Origin: an uncultured Acidimicrobiales bacterium
GTDB taxonomy: Bacteria > Actinomycetota > Acidimicrobiia > Acidimicrobiales > SHLQ01
Assembly (NCBI GenBank): GCA_938084885.1
Contig: CALKGG010000001.1
Coordinates: 679-64,678, forward strand
DNA length: 64,000 nucleotides
Reading direction: 5' to 3'
The first letter of the stretch is position 1; each line of letters opens with the position of its first letter. Made by a program: the position numbers and the translations under genes. The notes beneath the pieces were generated by a model. The model made no database searches. It was not told where the DNA came from and saw nothing but the letters and a program-made list of their open reading frames with translations. Shown here piece after piece: positions 55,421 to 64,000 of this stretch.

Positions 55421-56830
55421 CTAGTCGGGGATTTCGGTGCCGTCTGGGCGGATGGTATGCCAGGAGCCGTCGGGGGTTCGGTAGATAGTGAACCCACGCT
55501 GTTTGTACCGGTTGTGTTTGCCGCAAAGCGGAGCCCCGTTGCCGGGGTTGGTTCTTCCGTCTCTCGAGTGTTCGAGCAGGTGGTCGGCCTGACAGTCGCT
55601 GCTTGGAATGGTGCAGCCCGGCCATACACACCGCGTGGCCTTTAGCTTGACGGCATGGCGGGCCATGCCGGTGAAGCACCGAGCTTTTCCTAAATCGACC
55701 TTTTCGCTTGCCGCGGTGACGACGACTCGGCGAATTTTCGACACGATGGCGTTGAGCATCATCTCGGTGGGTTCGAGCGGCGTGCCGTCGATTGTTTGAC
55801 AGATCATGGCATCGGGATCGATCCCATCAAAGAGCGTGGCCTCGGCGTCGTCGTTCCAGTCCGAAGACTCGCCGAAAGCAATGTCGTCGGCTGCGGAATT
55901 GCCGGTGACGTCGATGCCTGCGTCTTCGCCAAGCACCTTGGCCGCCAGCGTCTCGAATGTTGCCTGGTCCCACATGATGTTGTGGACGAAGTCTGCCGGG
56001 ACGGCACTGTTGGGGTTGGCTGCGGCGTCGATGAAGATCTGCCACAAGGCGTCGGCGCGGCGTTGTTGGACGGTGCGGGGCAGGTGTTGGCTGGTTGCCT
56101 CGTCGCCGTGCTCGGCGCGTGCTTTCTCCCAGTCGGCGAGTGTTTCGGCCTTCACGTATTTGTTGAATACTTCGGCGATTTGTAGGCCTTGCTGGCATGC
56201 GAAGGATGCAACCATGTGCCAGGCCATGTCGTAGTCCTGATCGATTCGGGCATTTCGATCTTCGTGCGCCTTCTGGTTGGGTGGGGTGGGGCCGTCTTCG
56301 TCGGTGAGACGCTTCCACTGCTGCAATCGCGTGTCGAAGGTGTCGAAGTCGGCCTTGGCCTCGTTCAGAATGGCTGTTTGGCGATGGGGCATGGCGTCGC
56401 GTACGCGGGCGTTGGCGTGCACAGCTGCGATGGCTCGGAAGTGGTCGGTGCCGAGCGTTCCTTCGCTGTAGGCGTCGGCGACGTCGGGAAGAGTGCGAGA
56501 CATGGCTGCGCTTCGTTGGCGGGCAAGTGCTTCGCTGTTCGACAGGCGGGCGTGATGGCGAACCATGGCCTTGGCGCTGGTGTGGCCGTCGGCGAGGTGG
56601 AATCGGAGGTTGTCGATCGCGTCGAGCAGGTCGACGCAGGCAGCATCACTGACTCGACGAACCTGCTCGAGTTCGGTGATGCAGGTGATGGCGTCGCGGC
56701 TGTTGGCTGGGGCCACCCCGGCCTGGCGCAGCGCAACGTGACCGGCGGCAATCATGTCGAGTGCCGCTGCCATCTCCGGGTTTGAAACCTGCGAGCTCAT
56801 ACGAACAAGTGTACGACTGCCCTGTGACAC
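55421..56830 (-). CDS. DUF222-type HNH endonuclease (actinobacterial 13E12-repeat-like family)
   Basis: C-terminal CVWPGCTIPSSDCQADHLLEHSRDGRTNPGNGAPLCGKHNRYK, an HNH motif. The long helical N-terminal domain is typical of DUF222. Confidence 0.85.
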   Translation of the reverse strand: MSQGSRTLVRMSSQVSNPEMAAALDMIAAGHVALRQAGVAPANSRDAITCITELEQVRRVSDAACVDLLDAIDNLRFHLADGHTSAKAMVRHHARLSNSEALARQRSAAMSRTLPDVADAYSEGTLGTDHFRAIAAVHANARVRDAMPHRQTAILNEAKADFDTFDTRLQQWKRLTDEDGPTPPNQKAHEDRNARIDQDYDMAWHMVASFACQQGLQIAEVFNKYVKAETLADWEKARAEHGDEATSQHLPRTVQQRRADALWQIFIDAAANPNSAVPADFVHNIMWDQATFETLAAKVLGEDAGIDVTGNSAADDIAFGESSDWNDDAEATLFDGIDPDAMICQTIDGTPLEPTEMMLNAIVSKIRRVVVTAASEKVDLGKARCFTGMARHAVKLKATRCVWPGCTIPSSDCQADHLLEHSRDGRTNPGNGAPLCGKHNRYKQRGFTIYRTPDGSWHTIRPDGTEIPD

Positions 56831-57143
56831 TCGAATTGAGAGGGCGTTCGGGGGAACGCAAAGGACTCGTCAACTCAAACCCAGCAAGACTCGACGCCAG
56901 GTCTGTTGGATTTTGAGTTTGTGCTCGCCGCAAACCGTGGCAAGCATCGTCAACGTTCTCGAGTCGTACGTGCCCACTGCGCTATCGGCCCTCCGCTCTG
57001 ACGCGTCCATCGCCGGTCCACTAGCTGGTCAATAACCATTCATACCGACCCCATGTCGTTGTGCCCGGAGGTTCCGTTGCGGCCTGAGTCTCGGGGCTGA
57101 CATTTCCTACCCGAGTGCCGAGCATCGATCGCTCACCGGTTGC

Positions 57144-57174
57144 GACTTGAACTCGGAACCTGCGGATTAAGACG
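57144..57174 (-). other. tRNA-Lys(CUU)-like internal fragment (anticodon loop through T-loop), not an intact tRNA
   Basis: The minus strand reads CGTCTTAATCCGCAGGTTCCGAGTTCAAGTC, i.e. loop TCTTAA + TCCGC + variable AGGTT + T-stem CCGAG + T-loop TTCAAGT. The complementary 3' T-stem and acceptor are absent, and the 5' half does not pair. Confidence 0.3.
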
Positions 57175-57496
57175 ATCGATCGGCTGTACCGTCGCGCACC
57201 GTACTATGGCAAGAAGTGTTGATTTGTCAATGCCAATCGTGCGATCTGGGTCGCTAGCCGTACAGTTCCATACCAGCGAATACCGCTCGATCACGGATCT
57301 CTCGTGACATCACCGTGATAGTGGTGTCGGACCTAATCCTGGTTGGATCTGGGCCCGATCAGGATTCGCAGCCCACTGCTCGAGACTGTGCCTGGTGGCA
57401 TGACGCGGCGGGATTTTGCGCCCGAGCGGCGCCCGGGCCACTAAGAACAGTTTCATGACGGGTGCTGCGGCCGTGGTCAGTGTGGGATAATTGGCT

Positions 57497-58123
57497 ATGG
57501 CCAACCCTGACCCGCCGGAGCGTTCGCTGCAAGACATTACGGTTTACGAAGGCTTGGAAGCGGTCCGCAAACGTCACGAGATGTACGTGGGACCTACGCC
57601 AGCGCTCACTGACTTCGTCTTTGATGCGATGTGCCTTGCGCTTGCTGAGGGGCACTGTGGGACGTGTAGCGAGATTGCGGTTCGAGTCGATGGCACGACG
57701 TTCTCTGTCCTCGATAATGGCCTGGGTCTCTCGCTCGAGGTCGGACGGTTTGGCCGACCGTTCGCCGAAGCAGCGATGACGGTCTTGCATGCATGCCGTG
57801 ACCACAAGGAGCACGAGAAGCTGAAGCATGAGTTCTGTGGGATTGGACTCGCAGTCGTAAACGCACTTTCGAAGACTGCATCGGTCATGAGTTCGAATGG
57901 TGAACGGAGCTTCAAACAGACCTACATAACGGGCACGCCCCAAGGCGAGTTCGAGCAGCTGCCAGAATCGCAGCCCAGCGGCACCGTTCTCGCGTTCGAA
58001 ATTGATGAGGCCTATCTTGACGACCCGATATTCGATGCGGCACGACTGCGATCTCGTATCGAGGAGGCCGACGCTGACTTCAGTCGAGTGAGTATCACGA
58101 TCGACGAGGGCGGGGAGGGTTAG
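57497..58123 (+). CDS. Stand-alone GyrB-like GHKL (Bergerat) ATPase domain, apparently catalytically degenerate
   Basis: Colinear with the GyrB N-terminal domain: ITVYEGLEAVRKRHEMYVG; DNGLGLS (compare DNGRGIP); CGIGLAVVNALS (compare GGLHGVGxSVVNALS). It ends where the transducer domain would begin. The ExxxN motif position reads FDAMCLALAEG. Confidence 0.7.
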   Translation: MANPDPPERSLQDITVYEGLEAVRKRHEMYVGPTPALTDFVFDAMCLALAEGHCGTCSEIAVRVDGTTFSVLDNGLGLSLEVGRFGRPFAEAAMTVLHACRDHKEHEKLKHEFCGIGLAVVNALSKTASVMSSNGERSFKQTYITGTPQGEFEQLPESQPSGTVLAFEIDEAYLDDPIFDAARLRSRIEEADADFSRVSITIDEGGEG

Positions 58124-58497
58124 TGGGGTATGAAGCTGCTGCACAGCAGCAGATATTGCGCCTCTTCGTCTTGTTCGAGTCGCACGTCGATGACTCGAAG
58201 CTCCATTCCTCGAGCGCCGCGATCATCGCCGACCGGGCGAAATGGAGCCAGGCGAAGGGTCAGTTCACGAAGGTCCGGCAACGTCTGCTCAAGGTCGAAC
58301 AGAAAGGGTTGGATAGACGCGCCAGCTACCACCTCTCCTTTTTGGAGGAGTCGCTGAAGACGGTGTTCAACGAGACCGGGTCGAATGCGCCATTCGATTC
58401 GATATCACCGTTTTTCGTGGTGCCACTTGCGCTTCAACTCGCGTCAGAGATCGGTCTACCTTTATCCGACGTTCAAGACGCGTGTGATTACTCCTGA
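58123..58497 (+). CDS. Hypothetical helical protein (124 aa), coupled to the GyrB-like gene
   Basis: The GTG start overlaps the upstream TAG by 1 nt. In-frame GC3 is high for the first two-thirds. No family recognised. Confidence 0.5.
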   Translation: MGYEAAAQQQILRLFVLFESHVDDSKLHSSSAAIIADRAKWSQAKGQFTKVRQRLLKVEQKGLDRRASYHLSFLEESLKTVFNETGSNAPFDSISPFFVVPLALQLASEIGLPLSDVQDACDYS

Positions 58498-58633
58498 GGG
58501 CCGCTCGAGCTGTGCGACCGTTCGACCGTATTACGCACCCAGGCATGATTTCCCGGTAGACATCCGGTGGTCGTGGAGCCGCCGAGGCACGGCGGCGGAC
58601 GAGAGTCGGTCAGCCTCAGGCTAGAACTTATGC

Positions 58634-59560
58634 ATGGACCGAGAGAGCAGATTTCACCCCCTTGATGACGCCGGAGTCGGTGAACAGAAACTGCGGCAGT
58701 CTTGGTTGTTAGCGCCTGTGTCCGTTGGCGCAGGAATGCTTGCTGGGTATCTCTTTCTAGAAGATGAGCCCCTTGGCGGCTTACTCCTTGAGGTCGGCGC
58801 CGGATTGGTTCTCTTCGCCGTTCTCTTCTATTTCGAGCGAAGGTTTATCGTCAGCTACCTGGATCGGGCAATCGAGTCGTTGTCGGCTCCGCTCGATCCA
58901 GAAGATGTTGACACTGAGCAGATGCCGGGTGATTTCCGAGGCGACTTCGGTCCTCTCTTTATTGCTCAGGTCGTCCTACACCTGTTAGCCGCTGGTGACT
59001 ACGAGAAGGCGTTTTCGAGATTCTCCCAGTCGCTTCAGCTCGCGCGAGCTCAAGCGTGGCTGTTCAACAATCAGGCAGAACTAGGAATTATCGATAGCAA
59101 CCGTGAGTCCTTCATTGATCGACTCGTTGAACCAGACGTTACTGACCCGCTATGGAAAGAGTTCTCATCGTCGGAGGCTGCGCAGTACAAAGATGCATTC
59201 TCGTGGTTGGACATAGACCGTCTGGGTTGGTCTCAGCGCAGACGAATTATTGGACCGGGACACGAAGTCGTCATTGCCTTCACGCTCCCTGCTGAAAGCC
59301 CACACGGCCTCGTGATAACGGCCCCGCGTGCGGTCGAAAATGCGATCAAGCTGATTCTCGAGGCGGTTCACGAGGGCGGGATACTGACGTATCGAGTTGC
59401 AGGTGTTCAGGCCGAGTGTCCACCCAGTCCGGGTTGGCCTCCCACGCTGTGGGTCGTCGATGAGCCCGTCGCACAAGCAGTTCACCCCGGAATCACTGCT
59501 GTACCGATTCATATCCCAGATGAGGAGATCGCTGATGTAACGCCGTTGAGTGACCCGTAG
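58634..59560 (+). CDS. Hypothetical membrane-anchored protein (308 aa, two N-terminal TM helices)
   Basis: WLLAPVSVGAGMLAGYLFL and GGLLLEVGAGLVLFAVLFYF hydrophobic segments, then a soluble domain of about 230 aa. No family recognised. Confidence 0.6.
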   Translation: MDRESRFHPLDDAGVGEQKLRQSWLLAPVSVGAGMLAGYLFLEDEPLGGLLLEVGAGLVLFAVLFYFERRFIVSYLDRAIESLSAPLDPEDVDTEQMPGDFRGDFGPLFIAQVVLHLLAAGDYEKAFSRFSQSLQLARAQAWLFNNQAELGIIDSNRESFIDRLVEPDVTDPLWKEFSSSEAAQYKDAFSWLDIDRLGWSQRRRIIGPGHEVVIAFTLPAESPHGLVITAPRAVENAIKLILEAVHEGGILTYRVAGVQAECPPSPGWPPTLWVVDEPVAQAVHPGITAVPIHIPDEEIADVTPLSDP

Positions 59561-59590
59561 CCGGCCACAGCTCAAATTCTTGCAAAGAAG

Positions 59591-60637
59591 TCATAGCGCT
59601 GGCCGGGAGGGTTGAGGTGTCTCTGGAAATACCGCGATGGTCGCAGCGAAATCGACGGCCGCCCTTCGCAGCTCCTCAGCCGTTGCCCGCAGCAAGATCG
59701 ACTCCGCCTTTCGCCCAGTAAGACTGAACTCATGGGAAAGTCCGACGGTTAGATGTACCCGGCCGTTGATCCGCTTTGCCTCCGTGAACTGGATGCATGG
59801 CTCGATCAGCCATGGGGGATCTGGCGCTTGAGCATCCGGATCCCCAAATTCCAACCAGCTCGCGAGTTCGAACAGCCAGTGACAGATGAGTGGCGGTGTG
59901 TCGCACGTGAGGGCTTGCCAACGAAAGTCCCAGGCCTCTCCTGCGAGCGTCGCTGACCCTTCGACCATGTACCACGAGTCTCGCTTTCGGATGTCCTCAG
60001 CATCTGGGAACTGGTAACCGGCAATGGCAAGGCGAAGAGAGTCGCCGTCGACGGTTCCGAGCTTGAGGCCGTCACCGCCTTGTGGTGACGGGTTTGGGGA
60101 CCACGTGAATGAGTCCTGCATCCTGAGAAGTCGGAAATCCCAGATCTCGTGTGCAGGCACTGCGGGGTATTCCTCGGCGAGGTAGGTATCGAGCTCGGGT
60201 TGATCGAACGGGCCGAGCGAGGTCTTGTAGTCGTCGAAACAGTCTTGAACGTCACGCCAGCCATCGAACCGCCTCGTGGTCAGGCACATGCCGCTTTCGG
60301 TGTGAACGATTGTGATTTCGGTGTTGACCACTCGAGTAATTTCTCCTTCGCCGATTCGCTGGGGGTACAAGATCTCGAATGATGCCCCGAGTGTCGCATG
60401 GGCCCGAGGGAGATCTGTCAAGAACCACAGCTCGACTTCGGCAGTGCCGTCCGAGATTGACTCGCAGGATTTGATAACCGCCATAAAGTTCAACGGCTCT
60501 GAGTCTTCGCCGTCCAGAGACTTGAATCGGTAGACCCAACTTCGATTCTCGGCTGTTAGCCCGTCAGCCAGCTTCGGGTTGTCGACGAGAACCGTAGGGT
60601 CGAGTCGAAGAACAGCCGTGGTTTTGTGGCCCGACAT
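59591..60637 (-). CDS. Hypothetical two-domain protein (348 aa); the C-terminal half resembles WapI-type immunity-protein repeats
   Basis: LRLAIAGYQFPDAEDIRKRDSWYMVEGSATLAGEAWDFRWQALTCDTPPLICHWLFELASWLE...IEPCIQF resembles, from memory, the L.I.GY.FP...D.NWL...W....L...E...L..WL pattern of that family. Start coupled (TGATG) to the upstream HTH gene. Confidence 0.6.
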   Translation of the reverse strand: MSGHKTTAVLRLDPTVLVDNPKLADGLTAENRSWVYRFKSLDGEDSEPLNFMAVIKSCESISDGTAEVELWFLTDLPRAHATLGASFEILYPQRIGEGEITRVVNTEITIVHTESGMCLTTRRFDGWRDVQDCFDDYKTSLGPFDQPELDTYLAEEYPAVPAHEIWDFRLLRMQDSFTWSPNPSPQGGDGLKLGTVDGDSLRLAIAGYQFPDAEDIRKRDSWYMVEGSATLAGEAWDFRWQALTCDTPPLICHWLFELASWLEFGDPDAQAPDPPWLIEPCIQFTEAKRINGRVHLTVGLSHEFSLTGRKAESILLRATAEELRRAAVDFAATIAVFPETPQPSRPAL

Positions 60638-61539
60638 CAGCGGCCGCTCGAATCGTGTTGTCCGGCCGCTCGGTTATGCAAGATGGCATCGGCGCGGCTT
60701 TCGGCGGCAGTGGCCATTGCGACGAACCCTTCCCGAATTGCCGGGTCGTCGAGGTCGAAGATCTCTTCCCACGGCGTATCGGGTCCCAATCGGAGAACTC
60801 CGTAAGGAGAGGAAGCGGGGAACTCCTCGCCGAGCAAACGGAAGATCTTCTCACCGAGGAGTGTCTTCGATGCATTGGAGAAGGCGCTGCGAGGTGCGTC
60901 CGCCGCAAGAATCTGAGCGATCGGGGCGCCGCGGTACTTTTCGACCAGTTCCTCGAGGTCGTCAAACAAGCCCTTGATTTGCTCACGTTCTTCGACAACC
61001 AAGTCCACGAGTGTGCTCTCGCGGAACTTCTTGAAGTTCTCCCAAGAAGCATCAGGCGAAAACCCGAGGCCCTTCTTGGCGGTGTCGGAGACGCGTTCGG
61101 CGAAGCTCCCCCAAGTGTCGTCGTTGTCGGCGAGTGTGTTCAGCCGGTGCTCAAGGTCTCGGATCTGCCAGTCTTGAAAGCCGATCGTCAGAGCCCACAA
61201 ATCTGTTACAGGTCCGCCGTAGCCCTCGAGAGTGTCGGGCAGGCCGTGGGCCAGCTTGGGTGGCATGAAGAACCAGATGATCGGCCATTTGAAACCGAGG
61301 GAAAACGCCAGGATCTCCTGTGCTGTGAAGACGCGGCGCCGGTCGGACTCAACCGAGCGTTCAATTGCCGAGATGCTGGCCTTCTTGAGTTTCTGACCGA
61401 GGTACGGCTCGAGTTCTGAGGCGGTCTCGTCTTGGGTCCAGCCGCGCCATTCCCGTGCAACTCGAAAGTTGTATGCGACCACTTGATTCGCATCGAGCGT
61501 CTGCTCGCCGTGCTCGGTCTCTGGCTTACGTCGTGGCAT
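60637..61539 (-). CDS. XRE-family helix-turn-helix protein with a C-terminal domain of about 220 aa of unknown function
   Basis: NFRVAREWRGWTQDETASELEPYLGQKLKKASISAIERS, an HTH_3/XRE signature. Confidence 0.7.
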   Translation of the reverse strand: MPRRKPETEHGEQTLDANQVVAYNFRVAREWRGWTQDETASELEPYLGQKLKKASISAIERSVESDRRRVFTAQEILAFSLGFKWPIIWFFMPPKLAHGLPDTLEGYGGPVTDLWALTIGFQDWQIRDLEHRLNTLADNDDTWGSFAERVSDTAKKGLGFSPDASWENFKKFRESTLVDLVVEEREQIKGLFDDLEELVEKYRGAPIAQILAADAPRSAFSNASKTLLGEKIFRLLGEEFPASSPYGVLRLGPDTPWEEIFDLDDPAIREGFVAMATAAESRADAILHNRAAGQHDSSGR

Positions 61540-61595
61540 TGAGTCAATCTACCAGATCGCAGACTTGGTTGACAAAGTATGCAATTTCACGCGGG

Positions 61596-61607
61596 TGTGA
61601 TTTCACA
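61596..61607. promoter_or_regulatory. Palindrome TGTGATTTCACA upstream of the XRE gene (candidate autoregulatory operator)
   Basis: TGTGA-TT-TCACA read directly. A second ATTTCAC heptamer lies at 61584-61590. A TAGATT -10-like hexamer (minus strand) lies 6 nt before the ATG, suggesting a near-leaderless transcript. Confidence 0.3.
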
Positions 61608-61628
61608 TACTACAACCGTGTCTACGCC

Positions 61629-62165
61629 ATGTGGCGACTCGCGGCGCTCACCGGAATGCGCCGAGCAGAAGTGGTTGGTATGAAGTGGGAGTACTACAAC
61701 GACGTCGCGCAAACTGTCCGAGTAATTGAAACAATCACGACCTCGAACGGCGTTCCTGAGAACGTTCCGCCAAAGTCGAAGCGATCACGACGAGTCATCG
61801 ACCTCGACGACGAGACCGCCGATGCCGTACGAGCCCATCGGCAAACACAGAATGAGCTGCGAGAGTTCGTCGGCGACGGGTGGCAGGAACACGGATACAT
61901 GTTCACCACGCCACTCGGAACACCGCACCACCCCGACAACATCAGCAAGACGTTCACCAAGCTCGTGAAACAGGTCGACATCACCCGCATCAGCCTCCAC
62001 GGGCTACGCCACACCCACGCAACCCAACTACTCGCCGCAGGCGTGAACCCACGGGTAGTCAGTGAACGACTCGGACATGCCGACGTCGCCTTCACCTTGC
62101 AGACTTACGGCCACGTACTCCCAGGCCAACAACGCGCAGCCGCCGATGCTGCGGCTGGTTGTTGA
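61629..62165 (+). pseudogene. Tyrosine recombinase/phage integrase, catalytic domain only (N-terminal core-binding domain missing)
   Basis: ALTGMRRAEV (Arg), HGLRHTHAT (HxxR) and LGHADVAFTLQTYGHV (His/Tyr) are all present. Homology begins at about 61600, directly abutting the promoter of the divergent XRE gene. The in-frame upstream extension overlaps that gene and looks non-coding. Confidence 0.75.
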
Positions 62166-62188
62166 TGTAGCTGATCTTGATTTAGCTG

Positions 62189-63157
62189 TCAGTTAAGAGG
62201 TTCCAGATTCTGAGCGATCATTCTCTCGAACGCATCGATCTCGGTCGCCAGCAGGTCTCTGTCGACCATCGCTAGCCGAATCCGATCGATGACGTCTCGC
62301 TTTCGGTCTGCAGTCACTAGGTAGTGACGCGTATCGTCTTCCACATGATGTGGTACCGACAGAAAGGCCACGGGCGCCAGCTTTCGTTGGAGCCAGTCTT
62401 CCCAGTGGCCGACCGGAGGCTCCATCAGCTTCTTCTTCCACTCCGTGCTGCGAGCGCAGGTTGCTTGACCAACGAACTGGACTCCTCCAAGCCGCGTGTC
62501 CTCGGGCCACCAGTTGCTGATTGAGTCAGAGCCTTCCTCATTCGCGAAGACTCGATAGGGCGCCTCAGCCGGATAGGCATCTAGCCCGACTTCTGCGCAG
62601 CTGCTCTTCAAGGTGGCGGCGAACCCCCCTGCGCCACGAGCGTTCCTGCCCAGGCATGCGGTTGGCAAGCCCCGCGCGCTCAGCGCTGCTGCCACAACGT
62701 CCTCGAAGATATATGCGGGGGCCTCGGGGAATCCCTCGACGGAGGCCGCGTGACAAATGGTCAGAGCCAGCAAGGTCAAATAGGGGACCGGGAAGCTGCT
62801 GTCGCCGCGGAAGCTCACCACTACATTGTCCTTGCCAACCTCAAACGGATAGCGATCAGCCAACAAGTCGGCTCGTTCCCGCAGCACCTGTTCAATGTTG
62901 TTGGCGTACTCGGCCGCTATCGCTTGAGTGCTAGACAGGTCGGTGTCATCGCCGTCTGGCTCTGGCCCCCTGTCCTCAGGGTCGGAGTCTTGGATGCGGT
63001 CTCCAAGCTTGGCCAACCATCCCGTGGTGTCCACGATTTGGTCTGCGAGAGATTCCTTGCTGATGGTCACACCGCCGATTGCAAGAAGTTCGAGGTAGTC
63101 GGCAACCGCAGAACGTCGGTTGAAGGTTCCGTACCAGTCGAGATCAAAGCTAATCAT
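62189..63157 (-). CDS. Hypothetical protein (322 aa), coupled to the ParB/Srx-like gene
   Basis: 8-nt overlap with the upstream gene. Acidic disordered linker (DSDPEDRGPEPDGDDTD). No family recognised. The possible nuclease-like segment GSDSISNWW...VQFVGQATCARSTEWKKK is speculative. Confidence 0.6.
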   Translation of the reverse strand: MISFDLDWYGTFNRRSAVADYLELLAIGGVTISKESLADQIVDTTGWLAKLGDRIQDSDPEDRGPEPDGDDTDLSSTQAIAAEYANNIEQVLRERADLLADRYPFEVGKDNVVVSFRGDSSFPVPYLTLLALTICHAASVEGFPEAPAYIFEDVVAAALSARGLPTACLGRNARGAGGFAATLKSSCAEVGLDAYPAEAPYRVFANEEGSDSISNWWPEDTRLGGVQFVGQATCARSTEWKKKLMEPPVGHWEDWLQRKLAPVAFLSVPHHVEDDTRHYLVTADRKRDVIDRIRLAMVDRDLLATEIDAFERMIAQNLEPLN

Positions 63158-64000
63158 TGGTGTCGTCCGCTAAATCCCTCACGACGGCGCGGAGCGAGCG
63201 GGCGGTTCCAAATAGTTTCTCGCTCGGCGCCAATAGTGGCTCTGGATCGATGTCGACTGAGCTCGCATTCAGCTCATCCATGATCGCGGAGATGCTGTTG
63301 GCAGATGAGGTGATCCGGCTCGGAATACTCCTTCGGTCGACAATCTGTCTTGCGACGTCAAAGTCGCCGTGCTGCCGTAAGGCCGATCGAGCGCCCTCAT
63401 CCTGGAGTATCCGCCCATATGTGGTTATGTCTCGCGAGTCAGCCACGAGCGGTTTCCGGCTGCCAGGTTGCAGCGAGAGATCGCTAACGACTTCTCTGAG
63501 TCGCTCCTCGTTAAGGATCGAGACCGAAAGTTGGACCTCCTCGAAAGTCGTCGGTTTTCCGATCCCGACGTATTCGCGAATGTCTGAGCTATTCATGCAC
63601 CGAATCCAGACTCCGAATCGATCGTAGTGGAGGTATTCAGTCGAGAGGCCGAGTTCATCTCGGGCATGCTCAAGGACGTGAATCGCAAGGTACGAGTTTC
63701 GGATGCCTTGGGCATTTGAGCCGATTTGTTTCCCGACGGACCGGAAAGGACTCTCATCGCCAGCATTCGCCAAATCGTTGACCATCTGTTGCGTAAAGCG
63801 CGCCCGAGCCTCAGCACTCCATGTCTTCATACCCCCGATGTGGCGGTAGGCCAGGTAGGTATCGACCTCGACACGATCTTCGACAATGATGCACGGAATT
63901 CGGTCGAATCGAGAAAGATCAAGGTCGGAATCGTCGATTCCTGTGAAAGGGATCGTCCCGAGTTCGCCATGCAGGATCTTTAGCGTTGCGAGGCGTCGGT
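63150..64000 (-). CDS. ParB/Srx N-terminal-domain-like protein; 5' end lies beyond the right window edge
   Basis: My translation upstream of the track's Met continues without a stop to the window edge: RRLATLKILHGELG...IPCIIVEDRVEVDTYLAYRHIGGMKTWSAEARARF. This fits the GxRR helix and the downstream HxxGxxxW segment of ParB-like N-terminal domains. The catalytic/CTP-binding half is outside the window. Confidence 0.55.
   Translation of the reverse strand, partial: RRLATLKILHGELGTIPFTGIDDSDLDLSRFDRIPCIIVEDRVEVDTYLAYRHIGGMKTWSAEARARFTQQMVNDLANAGDESPFRSVGKQIGSNAQGIRNSYLAIHVLEHARDELGLSTEYLHYDRFGVWIRCMNSSDIREYVGIGKPTTFEEVQLSVSILNEERLREVVSDLSLQPGSRKPLVADSRDITTYGRILQDEGARSALRQHGDFDVARQIVDRRSIPSRITSSANSISAIMDELNASSVDIDPEPLLAPSEKLFGTARSLRAVVRDLADDTND

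Follow-up and report, generated by a model that had tools for sequence, protein, structure and literature searches.

The 64,000-nucleotide stretch from an uncultured Acidimicrobiales bacterium analyzed here (GenBank assembly GCA_938084885.1, contig CALKGG010000001.1; hereafter the window) carries on its forward strand three consecutive open reading frames (ORFs), which we call gene A (57497..58123; 208 aa), gene B (58123..58497; 124 aa) and gene C (58634..59560; 308 aa). An initial annotation, made from the sequence alone, had read gene A as a detached, apparently dead ATPase domain of DNA gyrase subunit B (GyrB) at the head of a three-gene operon in a low-GC island. NCBIfam and PDB matches, structure prediction with Foldseek comparison, motif statistics across the family and ratios of nonsynonymous to synonymous substitution rates (dN/dS) all describe gene A as a stand-alone and, by its residues, catalytically dead homologue of the GHKL (24-kDa) subdomain of GyrB. 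We tentatively propose that it acts as a decoy for toxins that attack the ATP lid of GyrB.

The relationship to GyrB was recovered by all three kinds of comparison. The NCBIfam gyrB models (positions 13-209) matched gene A at E-values of 4e-27 to 6e-26, and the 24- and 43-kDa GyrB fragments in PDB matched it at E 3e-21 in a sequence search. The NCBIfam matches were to gyrB and parE models only and all fell below cut-off, the score of 95 bits against gyrB being far under the full-length cut-off of 796 bits. The Pfam model HATPase_c (PF02518) gave 18.7 bits, under its gathering threshold of 26.4, and on seven other family members it gave 19–24 bits in five and no match in two. An AlphaFold2 (AF2) model built on an alignment of 53 family sequences had a predicted local distance difference test score (pLDDT) of 92.8 and a predicted template modelling score (pTM) of 0.87. 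The best PDB matches of this model were all ATPase fragments of GyrB or ParE, with template modelling (TM) scores of 0.77–0.82, and those at the top were inhibitor-bound structures of the 24-kDa fragment (GyrB24). Gene A is thereby predicted to carry the GHKL (Bergerat) fold of GyrB24, in agreement with the earlier reading by eye. As also noted then, it stops at the boundary with the transducer: residue 208 is where the GHKL subdomain ends, and the transducer (with Q335/K337), the Toprim domain and the C-terminal tail are all missing. Gene A shares fold and domain boundaries with the GyrB/ParE subdomain, and its family retains the N-terminal arm, the RKRPxMY segment, the DxGxG adenine motif, the VVNALS helix and the residues Q143, Y145 and G164-T165. 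Unlike GyrB and ParE, the family members consist of these ~200 aa alone, are at most 37% identical to real GyrBs among the matches listed, and have replaced a series of active-site and lid residues while acquiring an invariant triad of cysteines. No second GyrB-like sequence was found elsewhere in the window.

We computed residue frequencies from an alignment of 53 family members, 80 real GyrBs and E. coli GyrB, whose numbering is used here. Residues D45 and N46, each present in 80/80 real GyrBs, are replaced throughout the family, the former by Cys (53/53) and the latter by L, I, V, H, M or A (Asn in 0/53; Leu in gene A), and H38, found in 79/80 real GyrBs, is lost. Within the lid, G101, G102, K103, Y109, G113, G114 and H116 are each present in 80/80 real GyrBs. 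In the family, G101 has become Cys in 52/53 and G102 Arg in 45/53, leaving the Gly-Gly pair in no member; K103 is D, E or A, Y109 is absent, G113 and G114 are lost, and H116 is Cys in 52/53. Two arginines are affected as well: R76 (79/80 real GyrBs) is lost in 49/53 members, and R136 (68/80 real GyrBs) is kept in 20/53 and lost in 33/53, being Asn in gene A. Kept are I10 (43/53), R20 (53/53), R22 (52/53), P23 (45/53), Y26 (48/53), D73 (44/53) and T165 (42/53), along with G75, G77, T96, N124, Q143, Y145 and G164, while E42 is retained in 32/53 and is Asp in gene A. Gene A itself differs from E. coli GyrB by E42→D, D45→C and N46→L, and its lid reads CRD...HEFCGIG in place of GGK...GGLHGVG, with HACRDH for HAGGKF. 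The initial annotation had read the ExxxN motif as D...L with an altered lid, which the alignment bears out; of the positions it had singled out for verification, D73 is kept, whereas the equivalents of E42 and N46 are altered and the lid glycines are gone.

The three hallmark cysteines of gene A, C46, C100 and C114, correspond to E. coli D45, G101 and H116. C46 occurs throughout the family (53/53) and C100 and C114 in 52/53 each, and the lid motif of the close clade is ACRDHKEHExLKHExCG, with C100, R101, D102, E105, H106, K110 and C114 invariant. In the alignment, one cysteine occupies the former water/phosphate site and the other two the opposite ends of the lid, a placement that suggests a putative metal or disulphide staple. 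The GyrB residue equivalent to D45 is a second catalytic acid that holds the nucleophilic water together with E42 (eLife 2026, PMC13614785), and the transducer-domain lysine is missing from gene A. Given the family-wide substitutions, the role of D45 and the absent lysine, gene A is predicted to have lost ATP hydrolysis and, very probably, the binding of Mg-ATP. The adenine pocket and the N-terminal arm have survived.

Gene A sits in a tight clade of eight clusters with 43–98% identity and a length of ~205 aa, past which the E-value rises abruptly, from 2.5e-43 to 8e-21, with the first real GyrB fragments. An exhaustive HMMER search of 1.84 billion representatives placed many more proteins of ~200 aa (E 6e-73 to ~1e-30) ahead of the true GyrBs; among 52 new representatives inspected, 44 had the family hallmarks and eight were like real GyrB. 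The family comprises at least 45 clusters at 50% identity. The members seen came from metagenomes or metagenome-assembled genomes, and the few that are named are labeled as hypothetical or as "DNA gyrase subunit B". A word-indexed search with the 53-sequence profile returned mostly GyrB and four new members (P0270-P0273), and a DNA-pattern scan of metagenomes for ACRDHKEH gave six matches, one of which was a true member (L094). The same pattern matched nothing in IMG/VR, and tblastn against plasmids and phages found real gyrB or phage topoisomerase II only and no family member. Among the matches listed, a profile scan of genome contigs showed only real gyrB genes (≤37% identity) and says little on the carrier species. 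The longer family members P0126, P0132 and P0164 contained no informative fused domains. One 747-aa protein met in the searches, P0127, departs from the usual GyrB architecture and has no relation to the dead family: the ATPase and transducer domains of GyrB occur in it twice in tandem, the EVMDN motifs are intact, and a Toprim domain is lacking.

A recent gyrB pseudogene, which the initial annotation had named as a possible refutation, can be dismissed. The closest real GyrB has at most 37% protein identity among the matches listed, and at the DNA level just 38–62-bp patches of gene A resemble any of the 80 real gyrB loci covered by the comparison, the host's own gyrB lying outside the window. 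The dN/dS of gene A is 0.13–0.21 against six of seven relatives, the 98%-identical copy in L006 being too close to inform, and indicates purifying selection. Profile searches did not place gene A in any characterized family with intact catalytic residues, and no curated family in Pfam, PADLOC or NCBIfam appears to cover it. By its sequence, gene A defines an unannotated family of pseudo-enzymes derived from GyrB.

The TAG stop of gene A overlaps the GTG start of gene B (TAGTG), as had been noted, an arrangement of translational coupling. Gene B encodes an all-helical protein that is a lineage-specific partner of A. We inspected 13 loci of the family, of which eight, including the window, are close. 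Gene B adjoins A in three of these eight (the window, L008 and L009/L010), each time overlapping it by one base and at 86–91% identity, and is absent next to A in the other five and in every distant locus. It is confined to relatives with at least 80% identity and forms five clusters in all among 5.8 billion proteins. In L006, where gene A is 98% identical, a different 183-aa ORF stands 3' of A in place of B. The dN/dS of gene B is 0.08–0.16; searches of Pfam, NCBIfam, PADLOC and PHROGs gave no match, and its AF2 model was poor (pLDDT 59). Gene C has two N-terminal hydrophobic peaks, at residues ~23-43 and 45-75, in keeping with the two transmembrane helices described in the initial annotation. 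It is a singleton cluster with no homologue in any related locus. Its residues 122-221 share 31% identity with a stand-alone hypothetical protein of 157 aa encoded on a linear plasmid of Streptomyces albidoflavus (L106 4905-5378), where small hypothetical genes surround it together with genes for an HNH endonuclease and a TIGR02391-family protein. From this resemblance of its central part, gene C may be a small cassette domain in membrane-anchored form. With B in three of eight loci and C found with A nowhere else, the trio is not supported as a conserved operon or as a system of its own, contrary to the initial proposal. A type II toxin–antitoxin pair of A and B fails likewise on co-inheritance (B in 3/8 close and 0 distant loci, and another gene in L006).

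That the genes lie in an island is supported by mobile-element content: an integrase fragment, genes matching PHROG families and a repeat that stems from the 3' end of a tRNA. Its low GC content, part of the earlier description, is modest, at 57.8% in positions 57000-64000 compared with 60.6% in the rest of the window. Upstream of gene A lies a ~165-bp repeat (57144..57308), whose core resembles the T-arm and acceptor 3' strand of a tRNA on the minus strand; the 28-bp core is followed by a palindrome containing TTGACA and a promoter-like site. The repeat recurs between gene cassettes of related metagenomic loci. Four copies are found in L006 (148-313, 4277-4493, 6002-6029 and 6479-6644) and another match at L009 1642-1684, and the 28-bp core is present at 91–97% identity in L001 (5102-5130), L007 (27-58) and L008 (1-27). 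It gave no tRNA in ARAGORN, no Rfam match and no significant fold signal, and its appearance is that of att-type remnants or of an element at cassette boundaries.

At the left edge of the island is a DUF222/HNH endonuclease gene (55421..56830, minus strand; Pfam DUF222 E 3.7e-10). A distant homologue of it, at 22% identity across 360 aa, is found immediately downstream of P0125, a 42%-identical member of the gene A family, at L103 8641-9978; such HNH genes are mobile, so this pairing may be a coincidence, or a weak linkage. Convergent with A-B-C is gene D (59591..60637, minus strand), which encodes a 348-aa protein with a C-terminal WapI-like immunity domain (Pfam PF24716, E 1.1e-13, residues 196-338) and 195 N-terminal residues without a match. 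Gene D is a singleton with no homologue in any related locus; on a Streptomyces plasmid (L107), a stand-alone homologue of its WapI-like part has genes for barstar and NADAR as neighbors. Gene E (60637..61539, minus strand) encodes a 300-aa protein with a weak N-terminal Xre-type helix-turn-helix (Pfam HTH_31, E 0.024, below cut-off). Genes E and D overlap, stop to start, and make up a two-gene unit in that order (59591-61539, minus strand). A 236-aa ORF on the plus strand (61455..62165) holds the C-terminal catalytic domain of a tyrosine recombinase (Pfam Phage_integrase, E 6.6e-24) and no N-terminal domain, with NCBIfam Xer and integron-integrase models matching below cut-off; this truncated recombinase marks a mobile element. 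Two overlapping genes of 226 and 322 aa at 62189-63830 on the minus strand have no matches other than PHROG families of unknown function (phrog_3694 at E 3e-10 and phrog_14650 at E 2e-5). Together with the truncated recombinase, these matches suggest that a prophage or integrative element, now degraded, occupies the right end of the window. No match was found in PADLOC-DB v2 at E ≤ 0.1 for genes A-E, the integrase-fragment ORF or ORFs G and H, which removes a known defense system from consideration.

In the related loci, gene A stands alone as a cassette within mobile conflict islands, and immunity genes against polymorphic toxins are frequent neighbors. Such genes adjoin A in four of the eight close loci. 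An Imm35 gene is convergent with A in L001, L003 and L008, a pairing that holds even at 50% identity of A, and L008 also has a SUKH/SMI1_KNR4 gene. AbiE (AbiEii) is present in L006 and L094 and PIN modules in L007 and L003. Traces of mobility include an integrase beside tRNA-Arg in L003, a tRNA-Asn in L094 and the integrase fragment in the window. Compared with PDB sequences, the Imm35 neighbors showed no relation to Cpi1 or StbI, the immunity proteins of the GyrB-cleaving toxin Cpe1 and its like, so Imm35 is not the known family of anti-Cpe1 immunity. Orphan immunity genes of the Imm35, SUKH/SMI1_KNR4, WapI-like and barstar kinds are small, cytoplasmic, non-enzymatic solo cassettes in variable mobile islands, as is gene A. 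They differ in that, in the literature searched, we found none derived from its toxin's target.

Protection of gyrase by mimicry or by an extra copy of the target has precedents in the pentapeptide DNA mimics MfpA and Qnr, in GyrI/SbmC and in the resistant gyrB copies of aminocoumarin producers. Gene A would share the idea with them, yet these are DNA mimics, unrelated folds or full-length active GyrBs, and none is a truncated dead ATPase domain. Toxins that act on the lid are known as well. Cpe1, from a type VI secretion system (T6SS)/contact-dependent inhibition (CDI) setting (PMC12136450), and StbD-CT (bioRxiv 10.64898/2026.05.07.723447) are papain-like/C39 polymorphic toxins that cleave GyrB and ParE and stop growth, cutting the lid motif LHAGGKF exactly at the bond that joins G101 to G102 (PMC12136450; bioRxiv 10.64898/2026.05.07.723447). 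A G101S/G102S double mutant of GyrB resists cleavage. In the crystallized complex of peptidase and GyrB ATPase domain, the lid has moved ~11 Å into the active site and the GyrB arm (S2-K14) wraps the peptidase, with R22 and Y26 as prominent contacts and K103 in a salt bridge with the catalytic Asp of StbD-CT; deleting the arm raises the amount of toxin needed for cleavage ~100-fold (all bioRxiv 10.64898/2026.05.07.723447). FicT toxins are, as cited in PMC12136450, enzymes that AMPylate the lid residue Y109. The immunity proteins Cpi1 and StbI block the substrate exosite and not the active site (PMC12136450; bioRxiv 10.64898/2026.05.07.723447). In actinobacteria, Imm35 is specific to the papain-like toxin Tox-PL1, mostly exported by the type VII secretion system (T7SS), and is a probable peptidase inhibitor (Zhang et al. 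2012, PMC3482391); that survey makes no mention of gyrase or GHKL domains.

Every residue that these lid toxins target, G101-G102 and Y109, is gone from the family, and the surface by which they grip GyrB is kept: in gene A the scissile Gly101-Gly102 bond is Cys-Arg, while the arm, R22 and Y26 remain. We tentatively read gene A as a solo immunity decoy, an uncleavable and non-enzymatic mimic of the GyrB/ParE ATP subdomain directed at toxins that attack the ATP lid, and put the chance of this somewhat below even. Papain-like/C39 cysteine-peptidase polymorphic toxins of the Cpe1/StbD-CT type would be the best-defined candidates, a choice made with the same reserve. Gene A would present the arm/R22/Y26 exosite surface, perhaps with its remodeled lid, to an incoming toxin and, being neither cleavable nor, without Y109, AMPylatable, would draw the toxin off gyrase and topoisomerase IV by titration. 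Instead of ATP, a metal bound by the three invariant cysteines, or some other staple that they form, would probably secure the lid. The action resembles in principle that of Cpi1 and StbI, which also occupy the substrate-binding exosite of the toxin, yet their folds are unrelated to gene A (a small beta-sheet of five strands in StbI, and one without structural homologues in Cpi1) and they are encoded beside their toxins in Gram-negative bacteria, whereas gene A is a copy of the substrate with no toxin adjacent. The lack of a partner conserved across the family is as expected of orphan immunity genes. The GyrB24 fold, the family-wide substitutions, the retained arm, R22 and Y26, the immunity-gene neighbors and the purifying selection together argue for a decoy at a strength that still leaves it a little less probable than its negation. 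Of the two decoys proposed in the initial annotation, the version against protein toxins fits these observations best, and the version against aminocoumarins is disfavored, R76 and R136 being lost in most members.

Several observations weigh against the decoy. No recognizable toxin domain lies next to the gene A family in the 13 loci inspected. The immunity and mobile-island setting is limited to the close clade; distant members are solo genes in mixed, unrelated and partly housekeeping neighborhoods, as at L101 and L103. The characterized Cpe1/StbD-CT toxins come from Gram-negative T6SS/CDI systems, and the host here is an actinobacterium, as the DUF222/HNH gene and the 60% GC also suggest. 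Tox-PL1, the partner of Imm35, belongs to a different papain clade, and we know of no reported target for it. The charge of K103 is reversed to D or E in 34/53 members, so the lid of these proteins cannot dock exactly as the GyrB lid does. The retained arm, R22 and Y26 are weak evidence, because they are structurally conserved in every real GyrB. Finally, the decoy model does not require the invariant Cys triad, which may have another function, such as in metal or redox chemistry.

The cysteines are indeed the starting point of the alternative that gene A is a metal or redox protein unrelated to gyrase, its GHKL scaffold re-used and the triad forming a zinc site, an Fe-S site or a redox switch. 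The near-invariance of C46, C100 and C114 at the old water/phosphate site and the lid ends would be explained, as would the conserved histidine and acidic residues of the close-clade lid motif; the retention of the GyrB-specific arm and the RKRPxMY segment would be left without a reason, and no redox or metal-homeostasis genes recur near the family in the loci inspected. We consider this alternative unlikely. A second alternative is a small-molecule sponge, in which an adenine pocket freed of the Mg-triphosphate site would sequester ATP-competitive GyrB inhibitors without competition from ATP and so give resistance. Actinobacteria produce many GyrB inhibitors, the closest structural matches of gene A are inhibitor-bound, and the family has kept D73, G75, G77 and T165 of the pocket while losing N46, K103 and the glycine loop. 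The sponge gives no reason for the invariant Cys triad, however, and R76 is lost in nearly all members and R136, a key aminocoumarin contact, in more than half, gene A included, which disfavors an aminocoumarin sponge in particular; no biosynthetic cluster was found at the 13 loci, where the informative neighbors are protein-toxin immunity, toxin–antitoxin (TA) and abortive infection (Abi) genes. Overall, a sponge seems quite unlikely.

The remaining two alternatives draw on the coupling of A with B. If gene A were a regulator or poison of gyrase, it would heterodimerize through its arm with the N-gate of host GyrB or ParE and block strand passage, gene B being the antidote. The kept arm and EAVRKRPxMY segment, the translational coupling of A and B under purifying selection on both, and the frequency of TA and Abi modules among the neighbors would suit this. 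GyrB N-gate dimerization needs bound nucleotide, however, and the arm contacts the ATP of the partner (bioRxiv 10.64898/2026.05.07.723447), while gene A is without the Mg-triphosphate residues and the transducer. Gene B is missing beside A in five of the eight close loci and all distant ones, so A cannot be a toxin that needs B. The isolated 24-kDa fragment of GyrB is, moreover, not known to dimerize or to hydrolyse ATP. We regard such a regulator as very unlikely, and the dominant-negative heterodimer of the initial annotation is disfavored with it. The same annotation had also considered a sensor with a membrane effector, which corresponds to a guard: the GyrB look-alike would be a bait for a phage or toxin factor, and B, the two-helix membrane protein C or both would abort the infection. 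The conflict-island context, the A-B coupling and the membrane protein downstream of A in the window speak for a guard. Gene C, however, is unique to the window, B is restricted to a single subclade, with another gene in its place in a relative at 98% identity, PADLOC gave no match and most family members are solo genes. A sensor of this type is not supported, as there is no conserved partner, and we hold the guard to be highly improbable.

In its fullest form, the decoy would be the first case in warfare between bacteria of immunity by substrate impersonation, a dead and uncleavable copy of the target, its lid stapled by a metal bound to three cysteines, that soaks up lid-directed peptidase and AMPylase toxins; the linkage to Imm35 would then imply that T7SS Tox-PL1 toxins also hit gyrase. 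We rate this complete version as rather doubtful. As the initial annotation had supposed, no system built on a detached GyrB ATPase domain turned up: the literature searched contained no description of a GyrB ATPase domain that is dead or acts as a decoy, and none of an immunity protein derived from the target of its toxin. The gene A family is undescribed, and lies between a known fold and a known niche, that of immunity islands. If the decoy reading is true, it would represent a new principle of immunity, in which a dead copy of the target takes the place of a bespoke inhibitor. It would also extend the toxins that cleave the GyrB lid, described only in 2025–2026 and in Gram-negative bacteria, to the actinobacteria, and point to a possible target of the Tox-PL1/Imm35 toxins. 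Irrespective of its function, gene A represents an unannotated family of pseudo-enzymes derived from an essential drug target, with a cysteine triad in the old ATP site, and the family is of interest for the evolution of GHKL proteins and for the design of protease-resistant or inhibitor-trapping GyrB domains.

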